Assembly: GCA_041906785.1 (NCBI GenBank)
Contig: JAYRIM010000023.1
Span: 64,019-128,018, forward strand
Length of the DNA: 64,000 nucleotides
Direction: 5' to 3'
Source: Candidatus Levyibacteriota bacterium
Lineage (GTDB): Bacteria > Patescibacteriota > Microgenomatia > Levybacterales > UBA12049
Shown: in pieces, positions 4,932 to 27,551 of the stretch
How the letters are laid out: every line of letters starts with the position of its first letter
Position numbering within the stretch: the first letter of the stretch is position 1
The notes under the pieces: model-generated
What the model saw: the letters and a program-made list of their open reading frames with translations, nothing else
Told to the model about the DNA's origin: nothing
Database searches by the model: none
Made by a program: the position numbers and the translations under genes

Positions 4932-6065
4932 TTAAACGTTCGAAGATCCTTTATAGACTTTTGGCGTTAACCAATCAGTCGGAGGATTTATATCATCGAA
5001 ATTATTTTGCTGTTCCTGTGGTGGAAGAGTTACCTGCTGTAATTGTGGCTGTCTTTGCTGTACAGGCTGTTGTTGTGGTTGGGATTGCTGTTGATTTTGC
5101 TGAGCAGGTTGCTGCTGTTGGCGACGTTGATCAAACTGTGGTCTGCGATCCCTGTTATCATTTCTATCAGATTGACGTTGGTCGAATTGTCTTCTATCAC
5201 GATTATCTCGTTGCTGCTGAGACTGCTGTTGAGGTTGCTGTTGAACCACTGGGCGTTGTTGTTGAAAATTTCCTTGAGGTTGCGTCTGCGGTTGAGGTTG
5301 TCGCATTTGTTGTGTAGTTGTAGGCACTTGCTGAGTTCGTGAACGGACAGCTCCTTGTCTCATAAGAATACCTGCCATTTCAAAAGCTATGGGAGTTGTT
5401 CGTGGACTTTGGAAATTTTCTGTTCCATATGAAATACCATCAATAAGATTCTGAGCGATATCAACATCAAGTGGAGCTTTCAAGTCATTTAATACTTGAA
5501 CAATCTGTTCACTTACAGACGATGCTCGTGGATTTACAATAACAATATCGCCAAATCCTTGATTTTCTTGTTTATTATCGATGTTAACAAGTGTAACATT
5601 CTTTAACGCGTCAGGGCTAAATGCTGAATGAATATCTGCTAACCGTGGAGTACCAACCACAAAGAGTAAATCTAACTCACCATTTCCTCGGGTATAACGC
5701 ACATCTTGTTCACTGAATGTAAGGCCTTGGTCTCCAGCTTTAACGACAATATTCAGATACCCATTTTCGATCGTATATGATACTTTCTCGATGTCACCCT
5801 CACGATAGGGGAACGATACCACCAGATCAGCTCCTCCACCTTCATAACGAGTTTTTACTTTATCAACACCCACGAGGTTAGAGACTTCGACAATAGGTTC
5901 AGTAGCGGAAAGTACTGCAGTATTTTTACCCATAGCTTGGAGGGAGAGATAGAGAGAAAGAGCAGCAGCCATTTCATCAATTGAGGGCTCTTTACCCACT
6001 GCTACGGCTACTGATTTACTACGTTGTAGCGCTTCTTTTAGGCGCTGAAGTGTCGCATTGTCCAT
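4932..6065 (-). CDS. NrnA-like DHH/DHHA1-fold protein with degenerate catalytic motifs and a Gln/Pro/Arg-rich C-terminal tail
   Basis: Aligns to B. subtilis NrnA (LLFVVGTPRLADI ~ LVIVCDTANQERI; PRASSVSEQIVQVL ~ TSASSVSEMIYELY). DHH motif is IDNKQEN instead of IDHHPNE. The N-terminal DxD motif reads SID. No GGGH motif. Tail: QQQRDNRDRRQFDQRQSDRNDNRDRRPQFDQRRQQQQ… Occupies the infB/rpsO position where nrnA, rbfA and truB are often found. Confidence 0.6.
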   Translation of the reverse strand: MDNATLQRLKEALQRSKSVAVAVGKEPSIDEMAAALSLYLSLQAMGKNTAVLSATEPIVEVSNLVGVDKVKTRYEGGGADLVVSFPYREGDIEKVSYTIENGYLNIVVKAGDQGLTFSEQDVRYTRGNGELDLLFVVGTPRLADIHSAFSPDALKNVTLVNIDNKQENQGFGDIVIVNPRASSVSEQIVQVLNDLKAPLDVDIAQNLIDGISYGTENFQSPRTTPIAFEMAGILMRQGAVRSRTQQVPTTTQQMRQPQPQTQPQGNFQQQRPVVQQQPQQQSQQQRDNRDRRQFDQRQSDRNDNRDRRPQFDQRRQQQQPAQQNQQQSQPQQQPVQQRQPQLQQVTLPPQEQQNNFDDINPPTDWLTPKVYKGSSNV

Positions 6066-6090
6066 ATATCCTATATTATAATTTGTTCAA

Positions 6091-7551
6091 TTATGCGACT
6101 GATATTATCATATCTCCTATAGTAATGTCAAGCTGGTGAGACAAAACTATCCCTGCCTCACCTTTTGTTACTTTTGAAGTTACATTTTTACCTACTCTTA
6201 AGGATTGAATAGTAGTTTCTCCTATTACTGTGTCACCACGAAGAACACGTATTTTATCTCCACGAACGATTCTTCCTTCAATAATGGAAATTCCATAAGC
6301 AAATGTCTTTTCAAATGGAAACTTTGCAAGGATTTTTGCTTTTCCTAGTTCAGTCTCAAGCTGCATTTGTTTTTTACCTTCTATAACATCGGCTATCTCG
6401 TCAAGCATTTCATAGATAATCTGATAATTTTTAATTAATACCTTTTCAGCCAAGGCTAACCTTTGAACCTCGGGACGTATTTTTACATTAAAACTCAATG
6501 CTAGAGCACCTGTGGCTTTTGCCTGTAGAACGTCAGCCTCGGTTACCTCACCAGTTTTTTGTGTAACGATAGTCACTTCCTTCGGCAGTGCGGCTACAAT
6601 AGCCTCGAGTGCACCTTCAGTATCAGCTGCTAAAATAAGATAGAGCGTATCACCATCTTGAGGCTTATGATAGAGAACATCTTCTGGTTTTCTTTCAGCT
6701 TCCTTAGCTGAAACTGTAACTTCAGCTTGTTTGGGAGTCACTATGCTTCCAACAGGTAAAACATCAGGAGCGCCTAGAATTTCTACTCCTTCTCCTACTG
6801 AGGCTTTATCAATAGGTTTTCCAAGATAATTCAGTACTGTCCTTAACCTGAATGTTTTTCCTTCACATGATACTTCTTCTCGTGTATGTAAGGTTCCTTG
6901 CTTAATAATAATCGTAGATTTAGCACCAGCGCGTGGATCGAGCTTTGATTCAATAACAATAGCCTTCAAGGCAGCAGAAGAAGAAGCTTTTTGATGAACT
7001 CCCCGCAGTTCAGATACTAATAAAATAAGATCAAGTAATTCTTTCATATTCTCACCTTTTTTTGCAGATACTTCTATAACAGGAATATCGCCACCATATC
7101 CTTCAAGAAGTACATTTTCACGAAGGAGTTGTTGTTTCACTTTTTCTACGTTTTTCGTTGGTAAGTCACTCATAGTTAACACAACGATAATAGGAAGATT
7201 TGCTGATTGAAGTAATTTTATACTCTCTCGTGTCTGTGGCATTACACCATCGACAGCAGAAACAATCAATAATCCAATATCAGCAGCTTGTGCTCCACGA
7301 CTACGCATGTTAGTAAATGCTTCATGACCTGGAGTATCGATAAACGTTATACGTCTCTTTTTACCTTCGTATTCCACTTCAACAGAAGATGATCCAATTC
7401 CTTGTGTAATACCACCATACTCGCGTTGAGCAACTGAAGTTTTTCTTAGAGCATCTAAAAGAGTAGTTTTACCATGATCGACATGACCTAATACAGTTAC
7501 AACTGGAGGAAAATCCCAATTTGTTTTCTGCTCTATATGTGTATTCTGCAT
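6091..7551 (-). CDS. infB: Translation initiation factor IF-2, short form (G domain + domain II + C-terminal domain, no N-terminal extension)
   Basis: VVTVLGHVDHGKTTLLDALRKT, DTPGHEAF, NKxD-like TMSDL. 486 aa. Confidence 0.95.
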   Translation of the reverse strand: MQNTHIEQKTNWDFPPVVTVLGHVDHGKTTLLDALRKTSVAQREYGGITQGIGSSSVEVEYEGKKRRITFIDTPGHEAFTNMRSRGAQAADIGLLIVSAVDGVMPQTRESIKLLQSANLPIIVVLTMSDLPTKNVEKVKQQLLRENVLLEGYGGDIPVIEVSAKKGENMKELLDLILLVSELRGVHQKASSSAALKAIVIESKLDPRAGAKSTIIIKQGTLHTREEVSCEGKTFRLRTVLNYLGKPIDKASVGEGVEILGAPDVLPVGSIVTPKQAEVTVSAKEAERKPEDVLYHKPQDGDTLYLILAADTEGALEAIVAALPKEVTIVTQKTGEVTEADVLQAKATGALALSFNVKIRPEVQRLALAEKVLIKNYQIIYEMLDEIADVIEGKKQMQLETELGKAKILAKFPFEKTFAYGISIIEGRIVRGDKIRVLRGDTVIGETTIQSLRVGKNVTSKVTKGEAGIVLSHQLDITIGDMIISVA

Positions 7552-7585
7552 AATAATTCCTTCTTAAATGAAGCTTTCTACTGTA

Positions 7586-7674
7586 ATTTCCAATCACCAA
7601 TTGCAATTTTCGAATTAATTGACTAATTAACGAATTCATAATTAATTGGAAACTGGAAATTCGAGATTGGAAAC
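7586..7674. repeat. AT-rich imperfect inverted repeat (AATTTCCAATC … GATTGGAAA, with internal AATTAATT palindromes) in the nusA-infB intergenic region
   Basis: Outer arms are exact reverse complements (TTTCCAATC / GATTGGAAA). Three AATTAATT palindromic cores inside. Confidence 0.5.
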
Positions 7675-7698
7675 TCTCCTATCGAATTTCATAAATGA

Positions 7699-8919
7699 TT
7701 ACTTAGTCTCCTCAGTTGGCGTTTGCACATCATTCGAGGTTTCAACTGTTTCTTCAGGAGTCTCAACTGCTTCAGTAGTTTTTACTTCTTCGCTTGCCGT
7801 GGTCACATCTTGGGTATCATCTTGAGTTGTCTGCGATGATGAATCTGTTTGTACATCTGAAGATGTTGATTCCTTCGCTTCAGTTTCTTCAGCTGGCGCA
7901 GCGGCCTCCGCTTCTTTTGCTGCTCCGGGCTCCTCTTTTCCTTCAATCTCTATACGATATCCTGTTAATTTTGAAGCTATTCGAACATTTTGACCATCTT
8001 TTCCAATTGCCAATGATAATTCTTCTTTTGGAACTGAAACAACTGCAAGTTTTTCATCCTCTTTTAGCGTCACACTGATATTTTTCGCTGGGGACAATGC
8101 TTGTGTGATATATACTTTCGAATCTTCAGACCACTGGATGATATCAATCTTTTCAATGCCACCAAATTCTTGAATAATTGCTTGCACACGGACACCTTTT
8201 TGGCCAACACAACTTCCAACTGGATCAATTCCTTGCTGATTTGATGCAACGGCGATTTTCGTCCTATTTCCTGCTTCTCTCGCGATTGCTTTAACAATGA
8301 CACTACCTTGGGCAACTTCAGGTACTTCTCGACGGAATAATCCTTCAATAAGCCCTGCATGAGATCGAGAAACAACAATTTCTTCACCTTTTAATCCTTC
8401 TCTAATCTCCTTAAGATACACTGCAAATCGTTGATTTAAGTGATATTTCTCTTGGGAGATCTGCTCTGTCGGGGGCATAATAGCTTCTGTTTTTCCAATA
8501 TCAACAATAATATTTTGGCCAGCAAACCGTAGTACCATTCCATTGACGACTGTTCCAATTTTTACTCGATAATCTGAAAAAATTGCTTCTTTTTCCTTTT
8601 CACGAATTTTCTGCAAGATAACTTGTTTCGCAGTTTGCGCGGCAATTCTTCCAAATCCAGGAGGTGTTACATCTTCATCATTATGAAAGATTCTAGCTTC
8701 ACCTGTAGATGAATTAAGTTCTGCACGGTATTCTTCAACCTCAACTCCTGGATGATCCTTTCTATAAGCAGCGAGAATCGCGTTTTTTACAGTCTCTAAA
8801 ACAACATTTGGATCGACTCCTCGCTCGGAAGCAACCTGATTAAGAGCTAACACAAATTCTGATCTTTGTACAACTGGCATAGTAGGGTACAGTATAGCAA
8901 ATAAGCATGTTACGATCAA
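7699..8919 (-). CDS. nusA: Transcription termination/antitermination factor NusA with an acidic Thr/Glu-rich C-terminal tail
   Basis: N-terminal domain, S1 and two KH regions (GxxG: IGKDGQNVRIASKLTG). Likely true start at the internal MPVVQRSEF (about 8880). Tail AEETEAKESTSSDVQTDSSSQTTQDD…. Confidence 0.9.
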   Translation of the reverse strand: MIVTCLFAILYPTMPVVQRSEFVLALNQVASERGVDPNVVLETVKNAILAAYRKDHPGVEVEEYRAELNSSTGEARIFHNDEDVTPPGFGRIAAQTAKQVILQKIREKEKEAIFSDYRVKIGTVVNGMVLRFAGQNIIVDIGKTEAIMPPTEQISQEKYHLNQRFAVYLKEIREGLKGEEIVVSRSHAGLIEGLFRREVPEVAQGSVIVKAIAREAGNRTKIAVASNQQGIDPVGSCVGQKGVRVQAIIQEFGGIEKIDIIQWSEDSKVYITQALSPAKNISVTLKEDEKLAVVSVPKEELSLAIGKDGQNVRIASKLTGYRIEIEGKEEPGAAKEAEAAAPAEETEAKESTSSDVQTDSSSQTTQDDTQDVTTASEEVKTTEAVETPEETVETSNDVQTPTEETK

Positions 8920-8939
8920 CCGTAGGTTTCATATATAAG

Positions 8940-9614
8940 CTATTTTTCCTTTTTAAATAACTTATATTGTTGAAGAAGAAGAAAAAGAGCTGGCAATAAC
9001 AGAAGATAGAGAAAACCTACCGAACTACTGTGTTTAACTATATATTTATATGTAACATCACTAAAATAATAGAGAGCGATATTTGGCAGCTCAGAAAGTG
9101 CTGTCGCAAAGAAAAATATTCTAAAATTAATCTTACTTAGCCCTGCGATATAACTAATGAAATCCATAATAGGCGCTGTTGTCAAACGAATTCCCAAAAA
9201 TGCTAGAAATTCTTTTTTCCTTGAAACCTTTTCTTCCCAGGCATGTAATTGTTGGAGAGGTACAAAACGTGAAACTAATGGTTTTCGATATACTCGAGCA
9301 ATCCAAAAAGCTATCGATGCACCGATAATAATTCCTAAAAATGCGAATATATAAGACCACAACCATCCATAAATAGGAATTAATAAAAATGATAATATAC
9401 CCCCTGGAATGGGAGGAATAACTACTGCGAGGATACGCCAAATAATTACAATGATGGGAGCGAGAATAACGTGCGCAATTGCAAAAGCCACGATTTGTTC
9501 TTGATTTGCAGGAAACCAAAAAAGAAAAAAAATAATAAGCAAAGAAGTTATGAGAAAAGATATATTAATAAGTCCTCGGGATTTCATAGTAGTATTATCG
9601 GAGAACAAAGGCAT
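8940..9614 (-). CDS. DedA/TVP38/TMEM64-family membrane protein
   Basis: Multi-TM protein with the VIPPIPGG motif characteristic of the DedA/SNARE-associated family. Start overlaps the stop of the upstream ClpB-like gene (TAATG). Confidence 0.65.
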   Translation of the reverse strand: MPLFSDNTTMKSRGLINISFLITSLLIIFFLFWFPANQEQIVAFAIAHVILAPIIVIIWRILAVVIPPIPGGILSFLLIPIYGWLWSYIFAFLGIIIGASIAFWIARVYRKPLVSRFVPLQQLHAWEEKVSRKKEFLAFLGIRLTTAPIMDFISYIAGLSKINFRIFFFATALSELPNIALYYFSDVTYKYIVKHSSSVGFLYLLLLPALFLLLQQYKLFKKEK

Positions 9615-12187
9615 TATTGTACAGCAACTATAATAGTATTCCCTTCATCAGTCGTCATCGTAAGGGTATTACCACGTTGTATCTCATCACGAAGTTTTTT
9701 CTGTGCAATAATATCCTCAACAGTGTCCTGAATATATCGTCGTAAAGGACGAGCACCGAACTGTTGATTAAAGCCTTCTTTCATAACTTTATTAAGAAGT
9801 CTATCATCGTACGAAAATGTTATATCCTGTTCGGCCAATCGCTTTTTAATACCATCTAACATAATTCGTGCTATGGAGCCCATTTCTGCTTCTCCTAAAG
9901 GCTTAAAGATAATAACATCGTCAAATCTATTCAATAATTCAGGTCTAAATAAACCCTTTTTCTGCAATTCATCAAGTAATCTATTCGAAAATTCATCTGT
10001 GACAGCAGAACCCTTTTCAATCTCCTCACGAATAAATTCTGCTCCCGCGTTTGATGTAGCAATAACAATACTGCTCGCAAAACTTACTGTTCGCCCTTTA
10101 TTATCTGTCAATCGTCCATCTTCAAGTACTTGCAAGAATAAATCAAGAATTTTAGGATGCGCTTTTTCAAATTCGTCAAGAAGTACTAAAGAAAATGGAT
10201 GATCTGCAATTTTATCTGTTAGTTCACCCCGCTCTTGTCCTTCACCAGGAGGAGCCCCAAGTAGTCTTTTTTCTCCTTCTATATCTGAATATTCACTCAT
10301 ATCAAGACGTATCATTTTATCTTCTCCACCGAAATAAAGTTCTGCTAACGCTTTCGCTGTTTCTGTTTTACCTACGCCTGTTGGGCCAAGGAAGAGGAAT
10401 GAGATAGGCCGTTTCATTGTGGTCATCCCCGCACGTAATCTTCGCATCGCTTCTGCTATAGCACGAATAGCATCCTCCTGTGCAATAACTCGCTTGTGCA
10501 TCAATTCTTCAAGGTGTAGCAGTATATCTTTTTCTTTCGCCGTGGGTTGGGATATAACAATGTGCGTTTTTTCTTGTATTGCGGTAACAATATCATCACC
10601 TCCAACAAATACTGTTTTCGTCTTACTAAACAAACCGCCAGCACCATGACTACGTGATGCAACAGTGTGGGAAACATCTTCTAAAACATTTACAGCACTT
10701 CCAGGTAATGCAGCTTCCTGGAAAAATCTATCGGCGTAATCTACTGCATTTTCAATTGCTTTGTAAGTCAACACAACTCTATTTTTTTCTTCAACTGCCG
10801 ATGCCCTTTCGAGAACCATTTTCATAGCTGTATGTTTATCTGGCTCTTCTAACTTAATAACAGTAAATGCTTCGAGCAATGAACTTTTTTCAATAAATGT
10901 TTTAAAATTACCTACCGTGACTGTCCCAATAACAGGCGTTTTTCCGGAAGTTAGATAAGGATATAGTGCACCAGATAAATCAATTTCGTAGGATGACGAT
11001 CCTGTAATGTTCTGTAATTCAGGAATGTATATCACTACATTTCCTGAGTGACTAACTTCTTCAATGATGGCTTGTAAACGACTTTCTAATTCTGCACGAT
11101 TTGCAGCGCCTGCGATGAGAGGACCTACCATAAGCTCAAGAACCTTAATATGAGGAACGCTTAATGATGTACTGTGAAGAAAGCTTTCTGTTGCCAATAA
11201 AGATACAAGATTTTCTCTACCACTACCTGGATCACCAACTAAGAGTATACTATTATTTTCTCGTTTAGAAAGAGTCTCAAGCATCTGTATAAATTCTTTT
11301 TCCCTACCAGTAATTTCTGGTTTCTTTTCAAATGCTTCATAAGAAAAATTTACAGTATATTTTTTCGTCTCATATGTCCATCCAGTTGTGAGTCCTTCAC
11401 CAATTCCACTACCATACATATGAACACGGCGTTTTTTCGGTTTTTCCTCATAAGGATACATATGTCTTGCCCAAGAAAGAATTTGCATAAGTTCTTCTTG
11501 TTTCAGTTGATGATTGAAAAGCAATTTGGTTTGTTGTTCTGTTAAAAAAAGATACGATCCGAATATATCAATTGAAGTTATATATGTTCCGCGAACACTT
11601 TTCGCTAGTTCGGCTGCATAGGTTATAACCTGTGTTAATGGAATATCTAGCAGCTGTATCGATTGCTTTTCAACTGGAATTTTATTCATTATGAATTGGA
11701 CTTGTTCATAATCCAGTAAGGAATATACAACTTGTTTTGTATTCTGATATACCAAAATTTTTTCTAATGCCTCTCGAGTCATCGATTCATACCAATTTTG
11801 ATCTTTATTATTTACTACTGAAATAACGGGTAAAACCTTTGCTATTTTATGCCTAAAGAAAAGCTCGATCTGTAAAGTAACAGAAAGGAAAAAAAGTGGA
11901 AGTTTTATATTTCCATGTTCACGAAATGTATTAAAAAACCAAACAGAAATGAAAAAAAGAACAACGACTCGTAATGTTCTCATAAGCGCTGTCTTATAAA
12001 AGTGATAAATCTTTGTATACGCCACCATATTTAAAAATGTATAAAAAGCTGAACGATAGTTACAACAGGCCAGGCCAGAAATAAAAGGAGAAATGCAATT
12101 TGAAATATTAGGATAACTGATAATAAAAGGAAACTGATAAGGATAAGTAATGTTTTTATACCTATTCCCATTCCTATTGAAAACCAA
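9614..12187 (-). CDS. Membrane-anchored ClpB/ClpC-like double-AAA+ protein with a degenerate first Walker A and no M-domain
   Basis: N-terminus from MRTLRVVVLFFISVWFF (probable start near 11983) has about 2 TM helices. NBD1 Walker A reads GDPGSGRE instead of GxxGxGKT. NBD2 is intact: GPTGVGKTETAKALAE, LVLLDEFEKAHP, sensor RPELLNRFDDVIIF. No IGF/LGF ClpP loop. Confidence 0.75.
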   Translation of the reverse strand: MVFNRNGNRYKNITYPYQFPFIISYPNISNCISPFISGLACCNYRSAFYTFLNMVAYTKIYHFYKTALMRTLRVVVLFFISVWFFNTFREHGNIKLPLFFLSVTLQIELFFRHKIAKVLPVISVVNNKDQNWYESMTREALEKILVYQNTKQVVYSLLDYEQVQFIMNKIPVEKQSIQLLDIPLTQVITYAAELAKSVRGTYITSIDIFGSYLFLTEQQTKLLFNHQLKQEELMQILSWARHMYPYEEKPKKRRVHMYGSGIGEGLTTGWTYETKKYTVNFSYEAFEKKPEITGREKEFIQMLETLSKRENNSILLVGDPGSGRENLVSLLATESFLHSTSLSVPHIKVLELMVGPLIAGAANRAELESRLQAIIEEVSHSGNVVIYIPELQNITGSSSYEIDLSGALYPYLTSGKTPVIGTVTVGNFKTFIEKSSLLEAFTVIKLEEPDKHTAMKMVLERASAVEEKNRVVLTYKAIENAVDYADRFFQEAALPGSAVNVLEDVSHTVASRSHGAGGLFSKTKTVFVGGDDIVTAIQEKTHIVISQPTAKEKDILLHLEELMHKRVIAQEDAIRAIAEAMRRLRAGMTTMKRPISFLFLGPTGVGKTETAKALAELYFGGEDKMIRLDMSEYSDIEGEKRLLGAPPGEGQERGELTDKIADHPFSLVLLDEFEKAHPKILDLFLQVLEDGRLTDNKGRTVSFASSIVIATSNAGAEFIREEIEKGSAVTDEFSNRLLDELQKKGLFRPELLNRFDDVIIFKPLGEAEMGSIARIMLDGIKKRLAEQDITFSYDDRLLNKVMKEGFNQQFGARPLRRYIQDTVEDIIAQKKLRDEIQRGNTLTMTTDEGNTIIVAVQ

Positions 12188-12405: not shown

Positions 12406-12996
12406 CTAGCGTTTAATGAAGCTGAGTTTTTCAAACAAGAGAAAAGATGCGGCAACAGTTCCTGTAGACCAGATCTCTCCTTTCATAATCATACGATATA
12501 CCTCTTCAAACGATAATGTTAAGAGTTCAATATCTTCTGTTATTTCAAGTACTGGTTTTTGTTTTAAAAAAACATCTTTCGCAATAAACATATAAATGTT
12601 ACCTAGTTCTTTGGAAGGATTGTGATTGAACTTTGCTAAAAAGGAGATGGAATCGGATGTGTATCCTGTTTCTTCTAATAATTCTCTTTTTGCAGCTTCG
12701 AATGGGATTTCGTTTTCATCAATATATCCTGCAGGATATTCAATCATAAACTCTCCAACTGCGTGTTTGTACTGTTTTTCTAGAATCAACTTATAATCTT
12801 TCGTTACAGGAATTACCTGTGCAACAGATTTATCCTGCCAAATATAATAGTCGTCAAGAATTTTCCCATTTGGAAGTTGGACTGTGTCCTGGCGAACTTT
12901 AAACCACTTATGATCAAGAGCGAGTCGAGAAGAAAGAGTTTTCCATTTCTTCATATGAATTCCACACAGTATCTCATGTATATTAATCCTTTGCAA
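12406..12996 (-). CDS. NUDIX hydrolase (ADP-ribose/nucleoside diphosphate pyrophosphatase-like)
   Basis: Nudix box GYIDENEIPFEAAKRELLEETGY (GX5EX7REUXEEXGU). The track's first codon is TTG; a likelier ATG start is at 12954 (MKKWKT…). Confidence 0.8.
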   Translation of the reverse strand: MQRINIHEILCGIHMKKWKTLSSRLALDHKWFKVRQDTVQLPNGKILDDYYIWQDKSVAQVIPVTKDYKLILEKQYKHAVGEFMIEYPAGYIDENEIPFEAAKRELLEETGYTSDSISFLAKFNHNPSKELGNIYMFIAKDVFLKQKPVLEITEDIELLTLSFEEVYRMIMKGEIWSTGTVAASFLLFEKLSFIKR

Positions 12997-13321
12997 GGCT
13001 ATTTAGAAAAGAAGAAATAATGGAAAGAAGGACACTAAATAATAAAGCCCACCAAAAAGAGTTTACTCGAAATCCTTCAATAAGAAGGTCTGTAAGAGAA
13101 ATCATTAATGCATTGAGAACAAGCGCAAAAACACCCAATGTAACCAATGTTATGGGGAGTGTTAGGAAAAACAGAATTGGCTTAATTGAGGCGTTAATAA
13201 TGCCTAATACCAATGCAACAATTAAAGCAGTTACAAACGAATCAACATACACTCCTGGTAATAAATATGCCGCAACGAAAACAGCCATTCCACTTATAAA
13301 CCAGTTAATTAATATTTTCAT
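12983..13321 (-). CDS. DUF360 / phage-holin-4-superfamily small membrane protein
   Basis: 112 aa, about 3-4 TM, with GMAVFVAAYLLPGVYVDSFVTALIVALVLGIINASIKPIL matching the DUF360 (YvlD/YqxA-like) pattern. Its ATG overlaps the ClpC-NBD2 stop as ATGA. Confidence 0.6.
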   Translation of the reverse strand: MKILINWFISGMAVFVAAYLLPGVYVDSFVTALIVALVLGIINASIKPILFFLTLPITLVTLGVFALVLNALMISLTDLLIEGFRVNSFWWALLFSVLLSIISSFLNSLAKD

Positions 13322-14979
13322 GATGATTCATGTAATCCATCTACACCTGAAGCATTTATTTCCCCATTTTCTAGTACAGAAACATGAGCTTGTTCGTTCG
13401 CATAGTTTTGTGAGCCTAGACCTACTGTAGCACTTGTTCCTCCTGCCACATATGCTCCACCTGAAGCATAGTTTGGCGGCGGAGTACCTTGAATGAATTG
13501 ATTTGTAAATGATTGATTAGTTTGCACAGATGGCTCATCAGACGGATTTATAGAAGGTGTTGCTGTTGGGTGAGTCGAATCTGGAGACAAAACACTTAAA
13601 GGATCAAAAGATGTCGCTACTGTAGGCGCTGATTGGCCCGTCGAAGGAACTGTCTGCTGTCCATAAACATAAGGTTGCTGTGATAACTGTGGCGTTTGAG
13701 TACTAGAAACTTGAGGTTGAGTATGCTGATCAGGTTGGTCTGTTGTTGGCTGAACCGTGGGGTTGTTTGTCTCCAAAGTAGCTTGAGCTGGCTGTTTTCC
13801 ACCTTCAGGTTTTTTAAACAAGAATTGGTTTGTTCTCGTGTCGTAATCTATCACAATAGTATCTCCTTGAACAAATTGTTTCCCGATGATTTGCAGCGCT
13901 ATTGGATTTTCTATAGATGTCTGGATTAACCTGCGCAACGGACGAGCACCGTACATTGGGTCATAACCTTCTTGTGCAAGCTTATTTAATGCTCTATCGG
14001 TTACTTTTACTGCAAATCCTTGTTCTTTTAATAATTTTGCAGTTTTTTCAAGACCTCGTTTCGCAATACCTACCATATCAGATCTCTGCAGTGGTTTAAA
14101 AATAACAATATCATCATAACGATTAAGTAATTCTGGCCGGAAAAATTTCCGTAGTTCAGTATTAACGACTGTTGATAGTTCAGCAAAATCTTTTTCATAT
14201 TGTTCTTTTGATTTTTCTTTTTTCGCATCTTGTTCACCTAATTTTTCAGTGATCATACCACTACCTATATTAGATGTACAAATGACTATAGTGTTTTTAA
14301 AGGATATCGTATTTCCTTTATTATCAGTTAAACGTCCGTCTTCTAAAAGCTGTAACAGAATATTAAAAACATCAGGATGTGCTTTTTCAACTTCATCAAG
14401 AAGGACTATTGAATATGGTTTCGCTCGAACTGCTTCGGTTAATTGTCCACCTTCTTCATATCCTACATACCCAGGAGGAGCGCCTATTAACTTAGCCACT
14501 TCATGTTTTTCCATATACTCTGACATATCTAAACGAACCATTGCATCATCACGTCCGAATAAAATTTCAGCAAGAGTTTTTGCTAATTCTGTCTTTCCTG
14601 TTCCGGAAGGTCCTAAAAATATAAAAGAGGCAATAGGTCTCTGTCCGCTTGCTAAACCAATTCTGCCACGGCGTACTGCTTCTGCAACTTTAACCACTGC
14701 TTCTTCCTGATCAACAAGTCGAAGATGGATTCTATCTTCAAGTTGCAAGAGTTTTGCGCTTTCATCCTCTGTCAACTTAGAAATTGGTATCCCTGTCCAA
14801 CTACTTACCACATTTTCAACATCACGCTTTGTAACAGCCATGCTATTTTCAACAGGTTCTGGTGTAGTTTGCTTACTCGGTGTAGGTGTACCAGGAGCAG
14901 CAGAAACTGGCTGGACTTCTGTCGCTTGTTGTTTTTCTTCTTTTACATTTACTGTATTTTGGGTATTTTTATCGTTCAT
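13318..14979 (-). CDS. clpC: ClpC/ClpA-type chaperone, C-terminal half (NBD2/D2 AAA+ module) as a separate ORF with a Gln/Thr/Pro-rich C-terminal tail
   Basis: Begins MNDKNTQ…VTKRDVENVVSSWTGIPISKL (canonical D2 start). Walker A GPSGTGKTELAKTLAE, Walker B IVLLDEVEKAHPDVFNILLQLLEDGRLTD, sensor-2 RPELLNRYDDIVIFKPL. No [LIV]G[FL] ClpP-docking loop. Long PTVQPTTDQPDQHTQPQVSSTQTPQ tail. Confidence 0.85.
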   Translation of the reverse strand: MNDKNTQNTVNVKEEKQQATEVQPVSAAPGTPTPSKQTTPEPVENSMAVTKRDVENVVSSWTGIPISKLTEDESAKLLQLEDRIHLRLVDQEEAVVKVAEAVRRGRIGLASGQRPIASFIFLGPSGTGKTELAKTLAEILFGRDDAMVRLDMSEYMEKHEVAKLIGAPPGYVGYEEGGQLTEAVRAKPYSIVLLDEVEKAHPDVFNILLQLLEDGRLTDNKGNTISFKNTIVICTSNIGSGMITEKLGEQDAKKEKSKEQYEKDFAELSTVVNTELRKFFRPELLNRYDDIVIFKPLQRSDMVGIAKRGLEKTAKLLKEQGFAVKVTDRALNKLAQEGYDPMYGARPLRRLIQTSIENPIALQIIGKQFVQGDTIVIDYDTRTNQFLFKKPEGGKQPAQATLETNNPTVQPTTDQPDQHTQPQVSSTQTPQLSQQPYVYGQQTVPSTGQSAPTVATSFDPLSVLSPDSTHPTATPSINPSDEPSVQTNQSFTNQFIQGTPPPNYASGGAYVAGGTSATVGLGSQNYANEQAHVSVLENGEINASGVDGLHESS

Positions 14980-14981
14980 AT

Positions 14982-16628
14982 TTATACAGTTGGTGGTGGC
15001 GCAAAATCAGCAACTGTTGGCGCGCCATATCCTTGGATAGCACCTACTGGTCCATTTCCAATTTGTTCTTGCGCACTTGGTTCTGAGACACTCATCGGCG
15101 CACCTGGAGCAATTGACTCTTGCTCTGCCACCTCTTCTTTTGGTTTCTCTGTTTCTGTTTCTTTTTTATCAGAGCCAGGCTCAGTTTTAATTACTTCTAC
15201 TAATTCCTGCTGTGAATCTGTTTTATTTGAACCGATACGAGGAAGATGCGTTTCAGAACGGCCAAGTTTCACCCATGCAGCTGCTTCATCAAGTAAATCA
15301 ACAGCTTTATCAGGAAGATATCGCTCACCAATATATTTCTTAGATAATTTCACTGCTGCTTCAATTGTTGCATCGCTGATCGTAACACCATGGAACCGCT
15401 CATATTTAGACTTTAACACTTTTAACATCTCCATTGCTGCTTCTTCACTTGGCTCTTCAGCAAGCACAGGCTGGAATCGTCGCTCTAAGGCTTTATCTTT
15501 CTCAAAATTTTTTCTATATTCCATAGTAGTTGTCGCACCAATAATTTGCAATTGGCCACGAGCCAAATGAGGTTTAATTATATTTGACGCATTCATCGAA
15601 TCTCCACCGTCTCCCCCCGCACCCATAAGAATATGAATTTCATCAATAAAAAGAATAACTTGTCCAGCAGCAGCCATCGCTTCCTGGATGACAGTTCGTA
15701 ACCGTTCTTCAAATTCTCCACGATGACTCGCACCCGCAACAATAGATGATAAATCTAACTGAATAATCCGTTTATTAAGTAATTCTTTCGGTGCACTTCC
15801 AGCGACTATCGCTTGCGCTAATCCTTCTATAATGGCAGTTTTTCCTACACCTGCTTCTCCGATAATAATCGGGTTGTTTTTTGTTCTTCTGAGTAGGATA
15901 TGAACAAGTCTGTCAATCTCTTTATCTCTTCCGGCAATTGGATCTAGTTTACCTTCACGAGCTTGCTGGGTTAAATCAATACCAAACCGATCTAATACTG
16001 ACTTTTTCCCATATGCAGACCCATGGGTTTTGGCTAATTTATCCTGAACCTGTTCTTTCTGCATACCTTGTGTCTGTAATAAATTTGAAGTAGGTAACGT
16101 GTCTGAATATAAAGCTAATAATACATCCTCAGGTGTTATAAATGCGGATTCGCGGGATTTCGCATCTCGATACGCTTGTTCGAACACTTGTCTCGACTTA
16201 TCACTGAGGGTGGGCTGTCCCATAAATGATCCTGGTTGTTCTTTACTTTGAATTTCTCTGGTGACTTTTGCTGGATCAACAGAAAAATCTTCAAGTAATT
16301 TAAAAATATCTTCATCATAGAGTAAACCTATGAGAATCTGTTCAGGCTCAATAAAAGGTTGTCTAATTCTTTTCGTTTCCTCCTGTGCGTGTTGAAGAAC
16401 CTGTGTTGCTCGTTGATCTAAATGAGAAAGCGCTGACAAGTTTTGACGAAATGAAGCATTCATTTTAGAACCACCCATCTCTATCTGAGGATTCTGGGGT
16501 GGGGTATTGATGCCTCCACTACCGGACGATTGCATACCTGGCTGCTGTTGAGGGACACCTGCAGCCTGCGATTGCTGCATTGGTGGTGTTTCCTGTTTTT
16601 TAGATTGACTAAATAAATTACCAAACAT
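14982..16628 (-). CDS. clpC: ClpC/ClpA-type chaperone, N-terminal half (Q-rich extension + Clp-N repeats + NBD1/D1 AAA+ module) as a separate ORF
   Basis: Clp N-domain repeats, Walker [17 protein letters not shown], Walker [10 protein letters not shown], then [14 protein letters not shown]. It then runs into a disordered E/K/T/P-rich tail instead of an M-domain. Stop TAA at 14984..14982 is followed 2 nt later by the ATG of the NBD2 ORF (TAATATG). Confidence 0.85.
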
Positions 16629-16683
16629 AGTACTTACTTACCATTGTGTCGTCTTTCACAAGAATCGTCAAGTCCTCTGCCAT

Positions 16684-17100
16684 TTAACCGAATCCAGGGA
16701 TTTTAAGAATATCTTGTGTGATAACTTCGATGAACAGAAATCCAAAAACAGCGAGAAATAATCCTATTAGCGCATACATAATATAACTTTTTCCATTACT
16801 TAACTGTTGTGGATTACCTCTAGAAGTCATGATTAAATATCCGCCTATAATGATAAATAATAAAGAAAGACCACCAACTAGTCCTAAGCCCCATTTGTAA
16901 TATGTCTCAACAAATGAACCGACATCTGTGGGAATACAACCAAGATCTGATTTCACGCAGTTATCTTCTGCCAATGCATACGGGAGAGTATTTTTATTCG
17001 TTAGAAAAAACGAGAGGAAAAATAGAAAAAATAAGCCACGTTTAAAGGCAGTCATATATTCATCGTAACAGAGGATAAACAGAATTACAACATTGCACAA
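16684..17100 (-). CDS. Small secreted 2-TM protein, VirB2/TrbC-pilin-like topology (tentative)
   Basis: Signal-peptide-like N-terminus (probable start MTAFKRGLFFLFFLSFFL… near 17055), AxA-type cleavage site (YALA|EDN), Cys-containing short mature N-terminus, then two hydrophobic helices with GG motifs. Assignment rests on topology only. Confidence 0.35.
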   Translation of the reverse strand: MCNVVILFILCYDEYMTAFKRGLFFLFFLSFFLTNKNTLPYALAEDNCVKSDLGCIPTDVGSFVETYYKWGLGLVGGLSLLFIIIGGYLIMTSRGNPQQLSNGKSYIMYALIGLFLAVFGFLFIEVITQDILKIPGFG

Positions 17101-22324: not shown

Positions 22325-23236
22325 TTAAAACCATCCCTTATTTTTTTGTCCTTCGTTTTCAAACTCTTCAAGCAACTCTTTTTGTCTCTTCGTGAGCTTT
22401 TGTGGAATAGCAATCTTTATTCGCACATAATGATCTCCACGTCCCTGTCGTCGAAGAAGAGGAACACCTTTTCCACGTAAACGGATAAGCGTGCCCGGCT
22501 GCGTTCCTTCAGGAACACGTATTGTCACCTCACCATCAATTGTTTGTACAGGTAGTTCTGTTCCCACTGAAGCTTTCGCAAACGAAATTGTTTCTTCAGT
22601 AATAATATCTGCACCTTCTCTTTGGAATCGACTGTCAGAAGTAACATCTATAACGATATCATATGTATCAAATCGAATCCGAGAGCCTGAGTCTACTCCA
22701 GCTGGAATTTTAATTTTTTGTTTTTTACCTTCAATTGTTACTTCTTTCTCTACACCTTTTACTGCATCCATAAAAGAAATTGTTAGTGAATAAATAGGTC
22801 GCCTCTGTCGAGAACCGAATGGTGCACCACCAAAAAATTGTTCAAATATATCAAAAGGATCAGAAAATCCACCAAAGTCAAAACCTGCACCATCTCCTCC
22901 AGTTGAATACGTATATGTAAATGGACCGTACTGACCCGTTCTATTCCCACCAAACGGCCCCTGCCCGCCTTGAGCTCCGCCGAAGGGTCCAGCACCTTGT
23001 TCAAAAGCAGCTGCACCGAACTGATCATATGTTTGTCTTTTTTGCGGATCAGATAAAACCTCATACGCTTGTGTTACTTCTTTAAATTTGACTTCAGCTT
23101 CTTTTGTTTTGTTTCGATCAGGATGATACTGTAACGCTAGTTTGCGATATGCTCTTTTGATTTCATCTGCACTCGCATTTTTTGTAACCCCTAATGTTTG
23201 ATAATAATCTTTAGCCATATACTCTCCCTTTCTCAA
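22325..23236 (-). CDS. cbpA: DnaJ-class co-chaperone without zinc-finger domain (CbpA-like, J domain + G/F region + C-terminal domains)
   Basis: DYYQTLGV…[13 protein letters not shown] (HPD motif), Gly/Phe-rich linker, no CxxCxGxG repeats. Probable start MAKDYYQ at about 23218. Confidence 0.85.
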
Positions 23237-24191
23237 ACAAAATTATACCATTTTCTCCTTTTCTTCGTTGCCTTTCCAATCGATCACCTTTATATTTTCC
23301 AACCGTAAATTCATCCAGCGTCATGGGGCGTAAGACTCTCTGCTCCATGATAGCTACTTGTCTATTTCTCACCGCTTGTGCTGTAGGAACTTTCGGATCA
23401 TGAAATACTACTACCTCACCCACATGTAATCCATGGCTGTCAGATCCCGCATCAACCCCACCCAATAAATGTTGATATTTTTGAAAAATAACCTTAGCTC
23501 TTTTATTTGAGCTATATGATGGAAGTACGTTTTCTACCCGCCCACTCAATCCTTGAAGTAATCGATGTTTACCGATAAGTTTGCGTACTGTTCTTGATAC
23601 GTTATCTACATGGACGGAAGCCCCGTTATGAACTTCTATATTAAACTTATCTCTTATATTTGCCCCATCTCTACCCCAAGCGGCTATTAAAGCTACTATT
23701 TCAGCTTCTGTCATTGAAATATCACCCAATTCTGGATGAGCTATAGATACCATAACATCTTCCCATCCTGTCTGAGATCTCCTGCGAGAATTAACCTCTC
23801 GTAGTAATTCCGATACTGGAGCATTGGTTAACGGTGGTGAAGATTCACCAGAGAAATTCCAAATACGAATATGTCGTGGCGCCCATTGTTTTCTTTTTAG
23901 GTCATACATTAACTCGCTTATCGCTGTACTTTCTACACCAGGTATGAGTTTTATACCTATTTTTCGAGCTATCTCTATAGCATCAGGAATATGATGAGTC
24001 ATATCATGATCAGTCAAGCCAACGATATCTACACCTTGCCTTGCAGCATCATCAAGAATATCTTCAGTATTTCTTACTGCATCCGCCCCAGGGTTAACAT
24101 GGACATGCAAATCAGCTGCAACCATACCTGAAACGTACGGAATACCATATTGATGAATATAGGTTGCTTGCACATACTCTGCCGACATCAT
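23211..24191 (-). CDS. PHP-domain (polymerase/histidinol phosphatase family) metal-dependent phosphoesterase
   Basis: [14 protein letters not shown]…VGLTDHD…HPELG motifs of the PHP family. Inserted between dnaK and the dnaJ-like gene. Confidence 0.7.
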
Positions 24192-24257
24192 ATTTTGCCA
24201 AAAAAAACCTCGTGTTAAGAGGTATAATCTACGAGGTTATAAGAACAATGATGAGGT

Positions 24258-26174
24258 TTATTCAACAACTTCACCTTCTACAGGTTCATCACCTTTTTTA
24301 TCTTTTGTTTCATCTCTCCCTGGCTCTTTGGTCTCTTCTGTTCCTGGCGTTTCTTGTTGTCCTCCATTTTGTGGTGAGCTTGTCGAACCATACATCGCCT
24401 GCCCTATTTTTTGTAAGCTTTCAGAGAGATCTCGTGTCTTCATCTCTAGATCTTCTTTTGAACCTGATTCGAGAATACCTTTTAATACTGAGATTTTTTC
24501 TTCTATTTCTTTTTTAACATCTTCAGCTACTTTATCCCCCGCATCTTTTAAGGATTTTTCTGCCGTGAATATCATAGCGTCTGCTTGATTCCGTGTTTCG
24601 ACTCGAGCTTTCTTTTCTTCATCTTCTTTCGAGTGCAGCTCTGCTTCTTTCGTCATTTTCTCAACTTCTTCTTTCGAAAGACCAGTAGAACCTGTTATTT
24701 TAATACTTTGTTCTTTACCTGTTGCTTTATCTTTTGCAGTAACATGTAAGATACCATTTGCATCAATGTCAAATGTTACTTCAACCTGTGGCATACCACG
24801 CGGTGCTGGAGGAATACCATCGAGAATAAATCTACCCAATGATTTATTATCACCAGCCATTGGCCGTTCTCCTTGAAGAATATTTATTTCTACTTGTGTT
24901 TGATTATCTGCTGCCGTTGAAAAGACTTGTGATTTTGTTGTTGGAATTGTCGTATTTCTTGGAATTAGTGGGGTAGAAACACCACCAAGTGTTTCTAAAC
25001 CGAGCGTTAACGGAGTAACGTCAAGGAGAAGAACATCTTTTACTTCGCCACCGAGTACTCCTCCCTGTACTGCTGCTCCAATTGCGACAACCTCATCAGG
25101 ATTTACAGATTTGTTAGGTTCTTTTCCGAAAAACTTCGTGACGACTTCTACTACTTTCGGCATACGTGTCATACCTCCCACGAGTACAACTTCATCGACT
25201 TGTTTTTCTGTTATACCAGCATCTTTCAAGGCAAGCCGTACTGGATCTAAGGTCTTCTGGATTAACTCATCAACAATCGACTCTAATTTCGCCCGAGTCA
25301 AAGTCATGGTTAAATGCAATGGACCTTCTTTCCCTTGTGTAATAAATGGTTGGTTAATTTGTGCTTCCTGGGATGATGAAAGTTCTATTTTTGCTTTCTC
25401 TGCAGATTCTTTCAGACGTTGTAATGCTTGAGGATCTTTTCGTAAATCAATACCATTTTCTTTTTGAAATTCTGTGGCAATATATTCAATTATTTTCTGA
25501 TCAAAATCATCTCCACCGAGATGTGTATCTCCATTTGTTGACTTTACTTCATATACACCTTCTCCAAGTTCGAGGATAGAAATATCAAATGTACCTCCGC
25601 CCAAATCATATACTGCAATTGTATGTGCATTCTTTTTATCTAATCCATACGCAAGCGCTGCTGCTGTAGGTTCATTGATAATACGTTTAACATCTAACCC
25701 AGCGATTTCGCCTGCCTGTTTTGTTGCTTGTCTCTGACTATCATCAAAATATGCTGGAACAGTAATAACTGCTTCAGTTACTTTCGAACCGAGATAGCTT
25801 TCAGCATCTGCTTTAATTTTTTGCAGAATCATTGCTGAAATTTCCTGAGGTGTGTATGTTTTTCCTTCTACCTCAACCACAGCCATGTCATCACGTCCAG
25901 CTTTTACTGTATACGGTAGCCATTTCATGTCTCGCTGAACAGATTCATCATGGAATTTTTTCCCCATTAGTCGTTTTATAGAAAAAATAGTTCGTTTTGG
26001 TTTTAAGACCATCTGACGTTTTGCCACATCTCCCACGACACGACTCACTGGATCTACAACAGATGGGATAACATTTCTTCCTTCTGCTGAATGGATCACT
26101 TTAGGCTGTCCGCCTTCCATGACCGCTACACATGAATTTGTTGTTCCTAAATCAATCCCTATAATTTTTCCCAT
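24258..26174 (-). CDS. dnaK: Molecular chaperone DnaK (Hsp70)
   Basis: [22 protein letters not shown], full-length Hsp70 with substrate-binding domain and acidic C-terminus. Confidence 0.97.
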
Positions 26175-26250
26175 ATGTTCCTTTCAGTCAATCTAAAAAA
26201 TAAAAAATCAAATCTAAAATATCTTTGAGATTTAATCTTTAATTTTTTAT

Positions 26251-26766
26251 TTAACTTCCACTCCCTACTGTTACTTGTGCTGGCCTTAATATTTTATCAT
26301 GTAACAGATATCCTGCCCGTAACTCTTTAATAACCGTATTCTCCTTCCCTTCTTCTGTCGTAACAGCCTCCATAAGATGAGGATCAAACTCTTTCCCTAC
26401 TGTTTCAATCTTCGTAACACCTTCTGTTTTTAAAACATCGAGAAACTGGCCAATACTCACTGCAAGATTTTTATCATCGCTATGCAATTGTGCAAGCATG
26501 AGCGTATCTAAAACAGGAAGTATTCGTAAAAGCAACTCTCGATTTGCAGACCGAATCCATTCTGTACGCTGCTCTCGCATCCATTTCTCTTGGTTTTGAT
26601 AATCAGCAACTGCTCGTTTCCACTTCGCTTCTAGATCTCTTACTTGCTCTTCCAACTCCGCAACCTTTCTACTCTGTTTTCCCTTTGTCTCTTCTGGCCC
26701 TTTTGTCTCCTTTATTTCCGCCTGCTGATTATCAGTGTTGTCATTTTGTTTTTCGTCTTTTGCCAT
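26251..26766 (-). CDS. grpE: Nucleotide exchange factor GrpE
   Basis: Coiled-coil N-terminus and GrpE core …RILPVLDTLMLAQ…EFDPHLMEAV. Confidence 0.9.
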   Translation of the reverse strand: MAKDEKQNDNTDNQQAEIKETKGPEETKGKQSRKVAELEEQVRDLEAKWKRAVADYQNQEKWMREQRTEWIRSANRELLLRILPVLDTLMLAQLHSDDKNLAVSIGQFLDVLKTEGVTKIETVGKEFDPHLMEAVTTEEGKENTVIKELRAGYLLHDKILRPAQVTVGSGS

Positions 26767-26807
26767 TTTACAATTTTTATCTTTTAATTTTAACTTTTAA
26801 TTTACTA

Positions 26808-27551
26808 CTACCATCCTCTCACTATTTCAGGAATTAATATTTTAATGGTTCTCACTGTTGGAACAATATTCGTATAATTCAAACGGACAGGACCTATCAC
26901 TCCGATTATCCCTTTATGCTGCATTGGCGTTTGATAAGTGCTATATACTAAACTGTATGGACCTTGGAGCATAGATCCTAATTCATCTCCTAATAAAATA
27001 TGAACATCCTCATCTGTTTCTTCTGATTGCTGCAAAAGCTGTTGAATGTAATCTGCACTATCAATCGCCTCAAGTAAATTCTTTGTGACGTCGATATCAT
27101 AAAACTCTGGCATATCGAGAATATGAGCATAACCAGAACAATATAATTCCCCTTCATCAGTCGTCGCGATAGCAAGTGTCTTTGTTTTTTCTGCTAATGA
27201 ACGCGTCACTTCCCGCAGAAAGCGATTAGCTTGATCTCGATAATCCCACACTCGTTCTTTTAATGCAACCTCTTCTCCTACAGATAGCTCTTTTTCCTTC
27301 ATGAGCTCACTCACATAGAACTTCATACCGTTCGGAGTGGGCATTCTGCCTGCAGAAGAGTGCGGTTTTTGCAGGTAACCTAATTCTGTTAATCTAACCA
27401 TCTCGTTCCGAATAGTAGCTGGAGATGCACTAATACTGTGTCTTTTTTCGAGTGTTTCAGAACCAACCGGCTCTGCTGTCTTAATGTACTCTTCGATAAG
27501 CGCTTTTAGAATTTCTATTTGTCGTTGTGTTAAATTCTGTAGTCCTTCCAT
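26808..27551 (-). CDS. hrcA: Heat-inducible transcription repressor HrcA (short form)
   Basis: LTQRQIEILKALIEEYIKTAEPVGSETL…SPATIRNEMVRLTELGYLQKPHSSAGRMPT. 247 aa, shorter than typical HrcA. Confidence 0.8.
   Translation of the reverse strand: MEGLQNLTQRQIEILKALIEEYIKTAEPVGSETLEKRHSISASPATIRNEMVRLTELGYLQKPHSSAGRMPTPNGMKFYVSELMKEKELSVGEEVALKERVWDYRDQANRFLREVTRSLAEKTKTLAIATTDEGELYCSGYAHILDMPEFYDIDVTKNLLEAIDSADYIQQLLQQSEETDEDVHILLGDELGSMLQGPYSLVYSTYQTPMQHKGIIGVIGPVRLNYTNIVPTVRTIKILIPEIVRGW

Follow-up and report, generated by a model that had tools for sequence, protein, structure and literature searches.

Analysis of a 64,000-nucleotide stretch of a Candidatus Levyibacteriota contig (JAYRIM010000023.1, positions 64,019 to 128,018; hereafter the window) revealed a class-I Hsp100/Clp protein whose two ATPase rings are encoded by separate, adjacent genes, open reading frame (ORF) 1 carrying the N-terminal domain and first AAA+ module (D1) and ORF2 carrying the second AAA+ module (D2; Table 1). 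The split was confirmed to be real and conserved under selection, and it probably reflects a fixed gene fission in a Patescibacteria-specific class-I Hsp100/Clp, the coupled and roughly equimolar subunits of which would stack non-covalently into a two-tier unfoldase.

The coordinates, domain content, and low-complexity ends that an initial annotation, made from the DNA letters alone, had assigned to the two ORFs (including the long ORF2 tail) were borne out by an ORF check, by Pfam and NCBIfam matches, and by AlphaFold2 predictions, respectively. The junction reads ACT GTA TAA at ATG AAC, with ORF2 offset by +2 relative to ORF1, and the proper ATG, the gap of two nucleotides (nt), and the change of frame described there were all seen on reading it; the TAATATG first given for this site had dropped one A, and the true string is TAAATATG. 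Pfam placed Clp_N, AAA, and AAA_lid_9 on ORF1 and AAA_2 (3.5e-66) and ClpB_D2-small (1.5e-22) on ORF2, with the four domains of the two AAA+ modules all passing cut-offs. The four class-I Hsp100 Pfam domains are therefore present but spread over two polypeptides, with a stop codon and a new ATG between D1 and D2 at all 11 loci inspected, whereas in single-chain relatives all of these domains share one polypeptide. Both modules have intact Walker A, Walker B, sensor, and arginine-finger motifs: D1 has Walker A GEAGVGKT at residues 257-264 and Walker B LFIDE at 326-330, and D2 has Walker A GPSGTGKT, pore loop GAPPGYVGY, Walker B LLDEVE, sensor-2 GARPLRR, and the D2-small domain.

AlphaFold2, run on the single chains with family alignments, gave confident folds for ORF1 residues 57-463 and ORF2 residues 46-400 and confidence scores (predicted local distance difference test, pLDDT) below 50 over the remaining terminal segments listed in Table 1. 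Nine helices with pLDDT >90 were predicted at ORF1 residues 58-201, and the D1 lid closes with the invariant helix AWVKLGRSE, the last predicted helix lying at 440-458. The disordered segments hold short conserved motifs, namely LPRI, LV.VI.T, and [ST][IF]A.GA.P with invariant G509 in the ORF1 tail (alignment A1), the start motif M[ND][DN]..N kept in the 20 clade-A D2-only proteins with an intact start, and Y.YGQ, FDPLSVL, and ANE..V...G, which recur in the C-terminal tail of most clade-A D2-only proteins. The first six residues of ORF1, MFGNLF (16611..16628, reverse strand), are nearly invariant and yet stand ahead of a hypervariable Q/P-rich segment; M1, G3, N4, L5, and F6 were each at least 90% conserved in a 90-sequence alignment of split and single-chain members (alignment A2).

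The stronger evidence for a natural split came from relatives, which were drawn from NCBI, JGI, ENA, and Logan data and clustered at 90% identity. The 19 homologues nearest to ORF1 (70-100% identity) are all D1-only (471-568 aa), the 24 nearest to ORF2 are all D2-only and occur on contigs sized like those of their D1-only partners, and from protein P0020 onward most ORF1 homologues are single chains (826-957 aa), apart from a few shorter, partial entries. Protein P0001, 100% identical to ORF1, occurs in both NCBI and Logan data. The initial annotation had proposed looking for the split in relatives and inspecting positions 14970..14990; the clusters answered the former, and an independent Logan assembly (L020, run SRR26835457) in which ORF1 and the junction are identical base for base bears on the latter. 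The pattern set against its reading, close relatives that are uniformly single-chain with an M-domain, was not what was found: the closest relatives are split and the single chains are M-domain-less. Eleven loci were inspected, comprising the window, L001-L004, and L021-L024 (clade A, nine loci) and L017 and L018 (clade B), and the D2 gene directly follows the D1 gene in 11/11, with no locus holding one half alone.

Comparison of clade members by the Nei-Gojobori method gave proportions of nonsynonymous differences (pN) of 0.07-0.11 for the N-domain/D1 core and 0.05-0.13 for the D2 core against proportions of synonymous differences (pS) of 0.71-0.85, with zero gaps over 340 codons of the D2 core and a pN of 0.31-0.43 in the ORF1 tail. 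The two cores thus evolve at equally low rates, and saturated synonymous sites together with conserved cores imply that both halves were kept functional long after the fission. Invariant across the family are the Walker A and B, arginine-finger, and sensor motifs, the D2 pore loop, and ERRFQ in D1, with GPSGTGKT, LLDEVE, TSN, and GARPLRR invariant in D2. The clusters, the adjacent pairs, and this purifying selection together upheld the earlier proposal of a natural two-polypeptide Hsp100 rather than a fresh nonsense mutation.

The junctions vary in detail and agree in layout. Spacers between D1 and D2 were -4 (an ATGA overlap), 1, 2, 3, 4, 5, and 7 nt, the stop codons TAA, TGA, and TAG were all used, relative frames 0, +1, and +2 all occurred, and no slippery sequence shared by the 11 loci was found. 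This variation rules out a shared recoding signal and suits coupling by termination and reinitiation. With stop and start codons within a few nt and no promoter- or terminator-like site at the D1/D2 junction in a consensus scan, the genes have the layout of a translationally coupled pair, and the tight spacing of -4 to +7 nt likewise fits such coupling.

The origin of the split was traced to the linker between the rings. The M-domain is the MecA- and resting-state-control element in ClpC, and in ClpB it docks DnaK and defines the protein. Against the NCBIfam ClpB profile, ORF1 covers positions 3-398 and ORF2 positions 526-849, leaving the M-domain positions ~399-525 unmatched, and the coiled-coil M-domain that ClpB carries in its D1 small domain is absent. 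The initial annotation had held that flexible tails replaced this domain in the split protein, a view that did not stand: in ~70 single-chain Patescibacteria relatives exactly 30 residues separate the end of the D1 lid from WTGIP, a ClpA-like linker such as LSNTSGKRTDNQVKKTDIEQVV, indicating that the M-domain was already gone in a single-chain ancestor. In a subset of the single chains this distance is 41-66 residues and the excess is rich in E, K, T, P, and Q, and in the split proteins of the 11 loci the D1 tail and D2 head together amount to 118-236 residues, the D2 head alone ranging from 45 to 135 aa. The tails thus represent low-complexity expansions of a short linker, and the fission fell inside such an expansion. 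Against a hidden Markov model (HMM) of the 22 residues before WTGIP, built from 91 single-chain relatives, the D2 heads reached 11.8-20.8 bits, and the ORF2 head was found to keep the ancestral linker helix VTKRDVENVVSS at 15.0 bits. A fission by partial tandem duplication, with ELVEVIKT of the ORF1 tail as a second copy of the linker helix (DIEKVVS), was rejected because no D1 tail exceeded -1.1 bits, while shuffled sequences reached up to 5.3.

A neighbor-joining tree of concatenated D1 and D2 cores (127 sequences, 707 columns, 100 bootstraps) recovered clade A (the window and four loci) and clade B (L017 and L018, the D2 proteins of which start with MQDP), each with 100% support. Clade A lies nested alongside two single-chain proteins with linkers of 30 residues, P0020 and P0021 (supports 77 and 82). 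The hypothesis that the split arose only once was rejected, since 0/100 bootstraps recovered an exclusive clade of A and B; the tree, the deeper nodes of which are weakly supported, is most parsimoniously read as recording at least two fissions independent of each other. One ancestral frameshift with a common relative frame was also discarded; it was true of the first five loci only and fails because clade A has frames +1 and +2 and clade B frames 0 and +1. A split intein with trans-splicing was likewise rejected, the hypervariable low-complexity tails having neither an N-terminal Cys/Ser intein start nor a C-terminal HN motif.

ClpA and ClpC carry a ClpP-docking tripeptide between D2 sensor-1 (T[ST]N) and FRPE. 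The counterpart in ORF2, between TSN (235-237) and FRPE (280-283), is 42 residues long, begins IGSGMITEKLGEQDAKKEK, contains EKLGEQDAKKEK, and gave no match to [LIV]G[FL] in a regular-expression search. The earlier statement that D2 lacks this motif did not hold literally, IGL occurring at 107, VGI at 303, and VGL at 519, but it held at the ClpP-loop position. Of 93 single-chain relatives with a readable loop, 91 had no tripeptide, two had LGV alone, and none had [LIVM]G[FL], and the loop is hypervariable and charged among relatives; by these counts the missing tripeptide is a family-wide trait unrelated to the split. No clpP was found by tblastn with E. coli ClpP as query in the window and five related loci, a search uninformative for the whole genome. 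The loop as a whole suggests independence from ClpP.

The class of the protein did not follow any single known member. The D1 half scored 335 bits against S. aureus ClpC and 321 against M. tuberculosis ClpB, the D2 half 376 bits against E. coli ClpB and 370 against ClpC, and either half ~240 bits against ClpA. The NCBIfam ClpB model (TIGR03346) was the best NCBIfam model for both halves, with 417.2 and 468.9 bits, their sum of 886 falling short of the 1232-bit cut-off, and all curated NCBIfam cut-offs were missed by both. Neither the ~50-residue M-domain nor the [LIV]GF loop of ClpC is present, and for ClpA (TIGR02639), which has an IGL tripeptide and a model cut-off of 993 bits, the halves reached 366 and 338 bits; the ClpA traits of no M-domain and a short direct linker are found in the ancestral single-chain form, the linker being expanded and cut in the window. 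Of the initial designation as ClpC/ClpA-type, the ClpA-like linker architecture and the place of ClpC among the nearest proteins stood, whereas the ClpA sequence proved distant compared with ClpC and ClpB. The family thus appears to be a lineage-specific Hsp100 class combining ClpC/ClpB-like modules with a ClpA-like linker architecture. The D1 pore-1 loop, which is KYR in canonical ClpA, ClpB, and ClpC, reads SHR across the family (ORF1 residues 300-302, window ~15723..15731, reverse strand; S301 invariant, H302 at least 90% conserved), and the D2 pore loop GYVGY is canonical.

Among known systems, ClpC of S. aureus and B. subtilis (PDB 6em8, 3j3s) was the best solved-structure match for D1 and near-best for D2, sharing the two-repeat N-domain, two AAA+ modules, and a similar loop length after D2 sensor-1; it differs in having a coiled-coil M-domain, a VGF tripeptide, and KYR in place of SHR, in lacking long low-complexity N- and C-terminal extensions, and in being one polypeptide. 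ClpB/Hsp104 (E. coli ClpB, PDB 4d2q) was the best PDB match for D2 and also has no ClpP tripeptide, and the location of the present gene near hrcA-grpE-dnaK-dnaJ is a further likeness, but the ~125-residue M-domain of ClpB is absent here and from all single-chain relatives, and the present protein is split. ClpA (E. coli, PDB 1ksf) shares the succession of N-domain, D1, short direct linker, and D2 without an M-domain, its linker, which we take to be LMPVSKRKKTVNVADIESVV, resembling the 30-residue linker of the candidate phyla radiation (CPR) proteins; it differs in far lower sequence similarity, in its IGL tripeptide, and in being unsplit. The closest precedent for D1 and D2 on separate chains, cut between the D1 lid and D2, is an engineered one: Beinker et al. 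(2005, J Biol Chem 280:37965, pmid 16162497) reportedly reconstituted chaperone activity from separately expressed NBD1-M and NBD2 (nucleotide-binding domain) fragments of Thermus thermophilus ClpB, by which chaperone activity does not depend on a covalent bond between the rings. In that laboratory construct the M-domain stays on the D1 fragment and no tails are added, whereas the present split is natural, selected, of at least twofold origin, and flanked by 118-236 disordered residues in which short motifs are conserved. ClpI of Actinomycetota (PMC10149685) is a recently recognized lineage-specific double-ring Clp class with a sub-class lacking the ClpP-binding LGF motif; ClpI differs in being single-chain, in its ClpC-length M-domain, and in its phylum.

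The fission would have started from a single-chain ancestor composed of N-domain, D1, a 30-residue ClpA-like linker, D2, and a C-terminal tail, with neither M-domain nor ClpP tripeptide. Its short linker would have gained low-complexity insertions in some lineages, and a stop and a start codon would have arisen within the insertion in at least two of them. In the present form a single mRNA would span both genes, and ribosomes terminating at the ORF1 TAA would re-initiate 2 nt on at the ORF2 ATG, giving near-equimolar D1 and D2. The D1 subunit would supply the substrate-binding N-domain and first ATPase ring and the D2 subunit the second ring; D1 and D2 hexamers, or D1-D2 heterodimers, could then stack into a 6+6 double ring threading substrate through a common pore and acting on its own as an unfoldase or disaggregase, independently of ClpP and of an M-domain route to DnaK. 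From the sequences we infer co-transcription, coupling, hetero-assembly, ClpP independence, and a cellular substrate, and from the analogy with the engineered ClpB halves the double-ring assembly. Speculatively, the D1-tail motifs LPRI, LV.VI.T, and [ST][IF]A.GA.P may be candidate ring-ring docking sites. Several points weigh against this mechanism: no recognizable Shine-Dalgarno sequence precedes ORF2 (nor ORF1), the absence of clpP is limited to the 64-kb window and five related loci, and with His for the canonical Tyr in its pore D1 may not grip substrate in the manner of ClpB and ClpC. To these is added the example of single-ring relatives that work alone, by which the halves may function independently.

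Two independent single-ring AAA+ machines arisen by subfunctionalization, D1 acting as a holdase or ATPase and D2 being Skd3-like or paired with a partner such as the neighboring membrane-anchored paralog, were regarded as the main rival and an unlikely explanation of the locus. The ClpB NBD1-M fragment is an active ATPase (PMC4239642) and human CLPB/Skd3 is a single D2-type ring active alone (PMC7343390), the length of the combined tails suggests that they are not needed as a tether, and 1.1 kb downstream there is another Hsp100-like gene, its D1 degenerate and its D2 intact. Independent machines would nevertheless leave unexplained the strict adjacency, fixed order, and near-zero spacing at every locus and in two independent fissions, the failure to see either half alone, the equally slow evolution of both cores, and the retention in the ORF2 head of a linker helix that packs between the rings. 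That the complex instead still feeds ClpP through a non-canonical contact, as a protease ATPase, was considered very improbable given that none of the 93 relatives has [LIVM]G[FL] in a loop that is hypervariable and charged, that no clpP was seen in the window or five related loci, and that the best D2 score was to ClpB. The length of the loop is ClpC-like, that of B. subtilis ClpC being presumably 37 residues, and exceeds that of ClpB by 13; moreover, ORF2 reads KLGE where we take ClpC to read YVGF, which could represent a degenerate docking loop, and relatives are publicly annotated as Clp protease ATP-binding subunits.

A single chain still made by programmed frameshift or stop-codon readthrough at the junction was given hardly any credence: ORF2 is shifted to frame +2 relative to ORF1 in the window as well as in 6/9 clade-A loci, and the L017 genes are in frame and separated by TAA plus one codon, but three frames, three stop codons, and spacers of -4 to +7 nt occur without a conserved slippery sequence, the ORF2 frame is open for just 8-36 codons upstream of its ATG, and this ATG and the start peptide (MND.N or MQDP) are conserved. 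A 2-nt offset between the halves of a normally single gene is also the classic signature of a sequencing or assembly indel or of a recent pseudogene in one genome. This possibility was effectively refuted by the same junction in an independent assembly, by a split common to the 19 D1-only and 24 D2-only clusters from different projects, and by saturated synonymous sites, conserved cores, and 340 gapless D2 codons; furthermore, the tails far exceed the 30-residue ancestral linker, and deleting one base would not restore the ancestor.

Double-ring AAA+ unfoldases (ClpA, ClpB, ClpC, Hsp104, p97, and NSF) are normally single chains, and how their rings communicate is debated. A natural separate-ring system that is selected and evolved at least twice would mean that covalent linkage is dispensable in vivo, and it would suit mixing wild-type and mutant rings, measuring ring-ring affinity, and testing the contribution of disordered tails. 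A large CPR-specific Hsp100 family without a DnaK-coupling M-domain or ClpP loop also bears on proteostasis in minimal-genome bacteria. The literature searched yielded no account of a natural Hsp100 split or of the present CPR family, which does not prove that none exists. All components are AAA+ parts of familiar kinds, and ordinary proteostasis is the likely function. More tentatively, it is possible that Patescibacteria hold an unclassified Hsp100 class defined by an N-domain, a His-pore D1, no M-domain, a D2 without ClpP loop, and conserved low-complexity termini, in which the linker would be a hotspot of expansion and repeated fission, D1 and D2 would form a natural non-covalent double-ring motor, and the motifs LPRI..LV.VI.T and [ST][IF]A.GA.P in the D1 tail and MND.N in the D2 head might dock rings or exchange partners, possibly with the adjacent membrane-anchored paralog.

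Table 1. Split Hsp100 genes, their parts, and neighboring features; coordinates are those of the window unless another locus is named.
Feature	Coordinates	Strand	Remarks
ORF1, D1 subunit gene	14982..16628	-	548 aa + TAA stop
ORF1 residues 1-56, disordered Q/P-rich N-terminal extension starting MFGNLF	16461..16628	-	pLDDT <50 at 1-53
ORF1 residues 57-203, Clp N-terminal domain, two helical repeats	16020..16460	-	Pfam Clp_N 81-128
ORF1 residues 204-463, D1 AAA+ module	15240..16019	-	Pfam AAA + AAA_lid_9
ORF1 residues 464-548, disordered E/K/T/P-rich tail with conserved short motifs	14985..15239	-	pLDDT <50; alignment A1
Junction	14977..14984	-	TAA stop 14982-14984, AT spacer 14980-14981, ORF2 ATG 14977-14979
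ORF2, D2 subunit gene	13318..14979	-	553 aa + TGA stop
ORF2 residues 1-45, disordered N/K/Q/T/P-rich head starting MND.N	14845..14979	-	pLDDT <50
ORF2 residues 46-400, linker helix VTKRDVENVVSSWTGIP and D2 AAA+ module	13780..14844	-	Pfam, ClpB alignment, linker HMM
ORF2 residues 238-279, counterpart of ClpA/ClpC ClpP-docking loop	14143..14268	-	reads IGSGMITEKLGEQDAKKEKSKEQYEKDFAELSTVVNTELRKF; no [LIV]G[FL]
ORF2 residues 401-553, disordered Q/T/P-rich C-terminal tail	13321..13779	-	pLDDT <50 from residue 405
Promoter-like site TTGACG-17-CACAAT	16643..16671	-	14 nt upstream of ORF1 ATG; 9/12 consensus match
T4SS_pilin-family gene	16684..17100	-	directly upstream of ORF1
PF04020 (Phage_holin_4_2) protein	12983..13321	-	112 aa, four transmembrane segments; ATGA overlap with ORF2 stop
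Second Hsp100-like paralog	9614..12187	-	~806-857 aa; 1.1 kb downstream of ORF2
nusA	7699..8919		
pnp	2124..4490		
Heat-shock gene cluster	22325..27551	-	~6 kb from the Clp pair; hrcA, grpE, dnaJ by position and L017 synteny
DnaK	24258..26174		59.5% identity to E. coli DnaK
Genes with ~40-residue repeats in related loci (membrane protein and, in L005, single-chain Clp homologue)	L002 192..3893; L003 1866..5891; L004 1849..5886; L005 1027..5577 and 5602..9978		

By its gene order the Clp pair sits in a conserved housekeeping and heat-shock neighborhood, the order in L017 being hrcA-grpE-dnaK-dnaJ, two more genes, D1, D2, nusA, and infB. No match to the HrcA operator CIRCE (controlling inverted repeat of chaperone expression; TTAGCACTC-N9-GAGTGCTAA, up to three mismatches) was found anywhere in the window, and promoter-like sites in the region are as many as chance predicts, leaving the one upstream of ORF1 as a candidate only. 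In all clade-A loci checked (L001 9266..9604; L021-L024), the PF04020 gene comes directly after the D2 gene, in L001 again with an ATGA overlap on the D2 stop; it is possibly a third gene coupled within the operon. The N-terminus of the Hsp100-like paralog is hydrophobic and looks like a transmembrane segment; its D1 is degenerate at Walker A (GDPGSGRE) and matches AAA_lid_9 weakly, its D2 is intact (AAA_2 1.6e-45 and ClpB_D2-small), and the gene holds the same position in relatives (L001 10578..12998; end of L022). In place of the pilin-family gene, several relatives have upstream a 1233-1516-aa membrane protein built of ~40-residue repeats (ANP...D.EK....L...L.KES..GN.LA..IL). The same repeats occur in a ~600-aa C-terminal extension of the single-chain Clp homologue of L005 (1458 aa), which hints at a functional link between the Clp family and the repeat membrane protein.

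The split evidently misleads annotation pipelines. Automatic JGI names for the D2-only proteins P0123, P0145, and P0148 include EcfA2 energy-coupling factor transporter ATP-binding protein, DNA polymerase III delta prime subunit, and MoxR-like ATPase, "ClpA" was also among the automatic labels, relatives are publicly named "ATP-dependent Clp protease ATP-binding subunit," and mislabelled halves could be dropped by a pseudogene filter. The nearest named relatives belong to Candidatus Levybacteria, Microgenomates, and the Patescibacteria group. The GenBank titles of the metagenome-assembled genomes containing L001-L005 (binchicken co-assemblies) read "uncultured Gammaproteobacteria bacterium," which clashes with their CPR-like gene content and nearest named proteins, and these titles look like placeholder or erroneous taxonomy.

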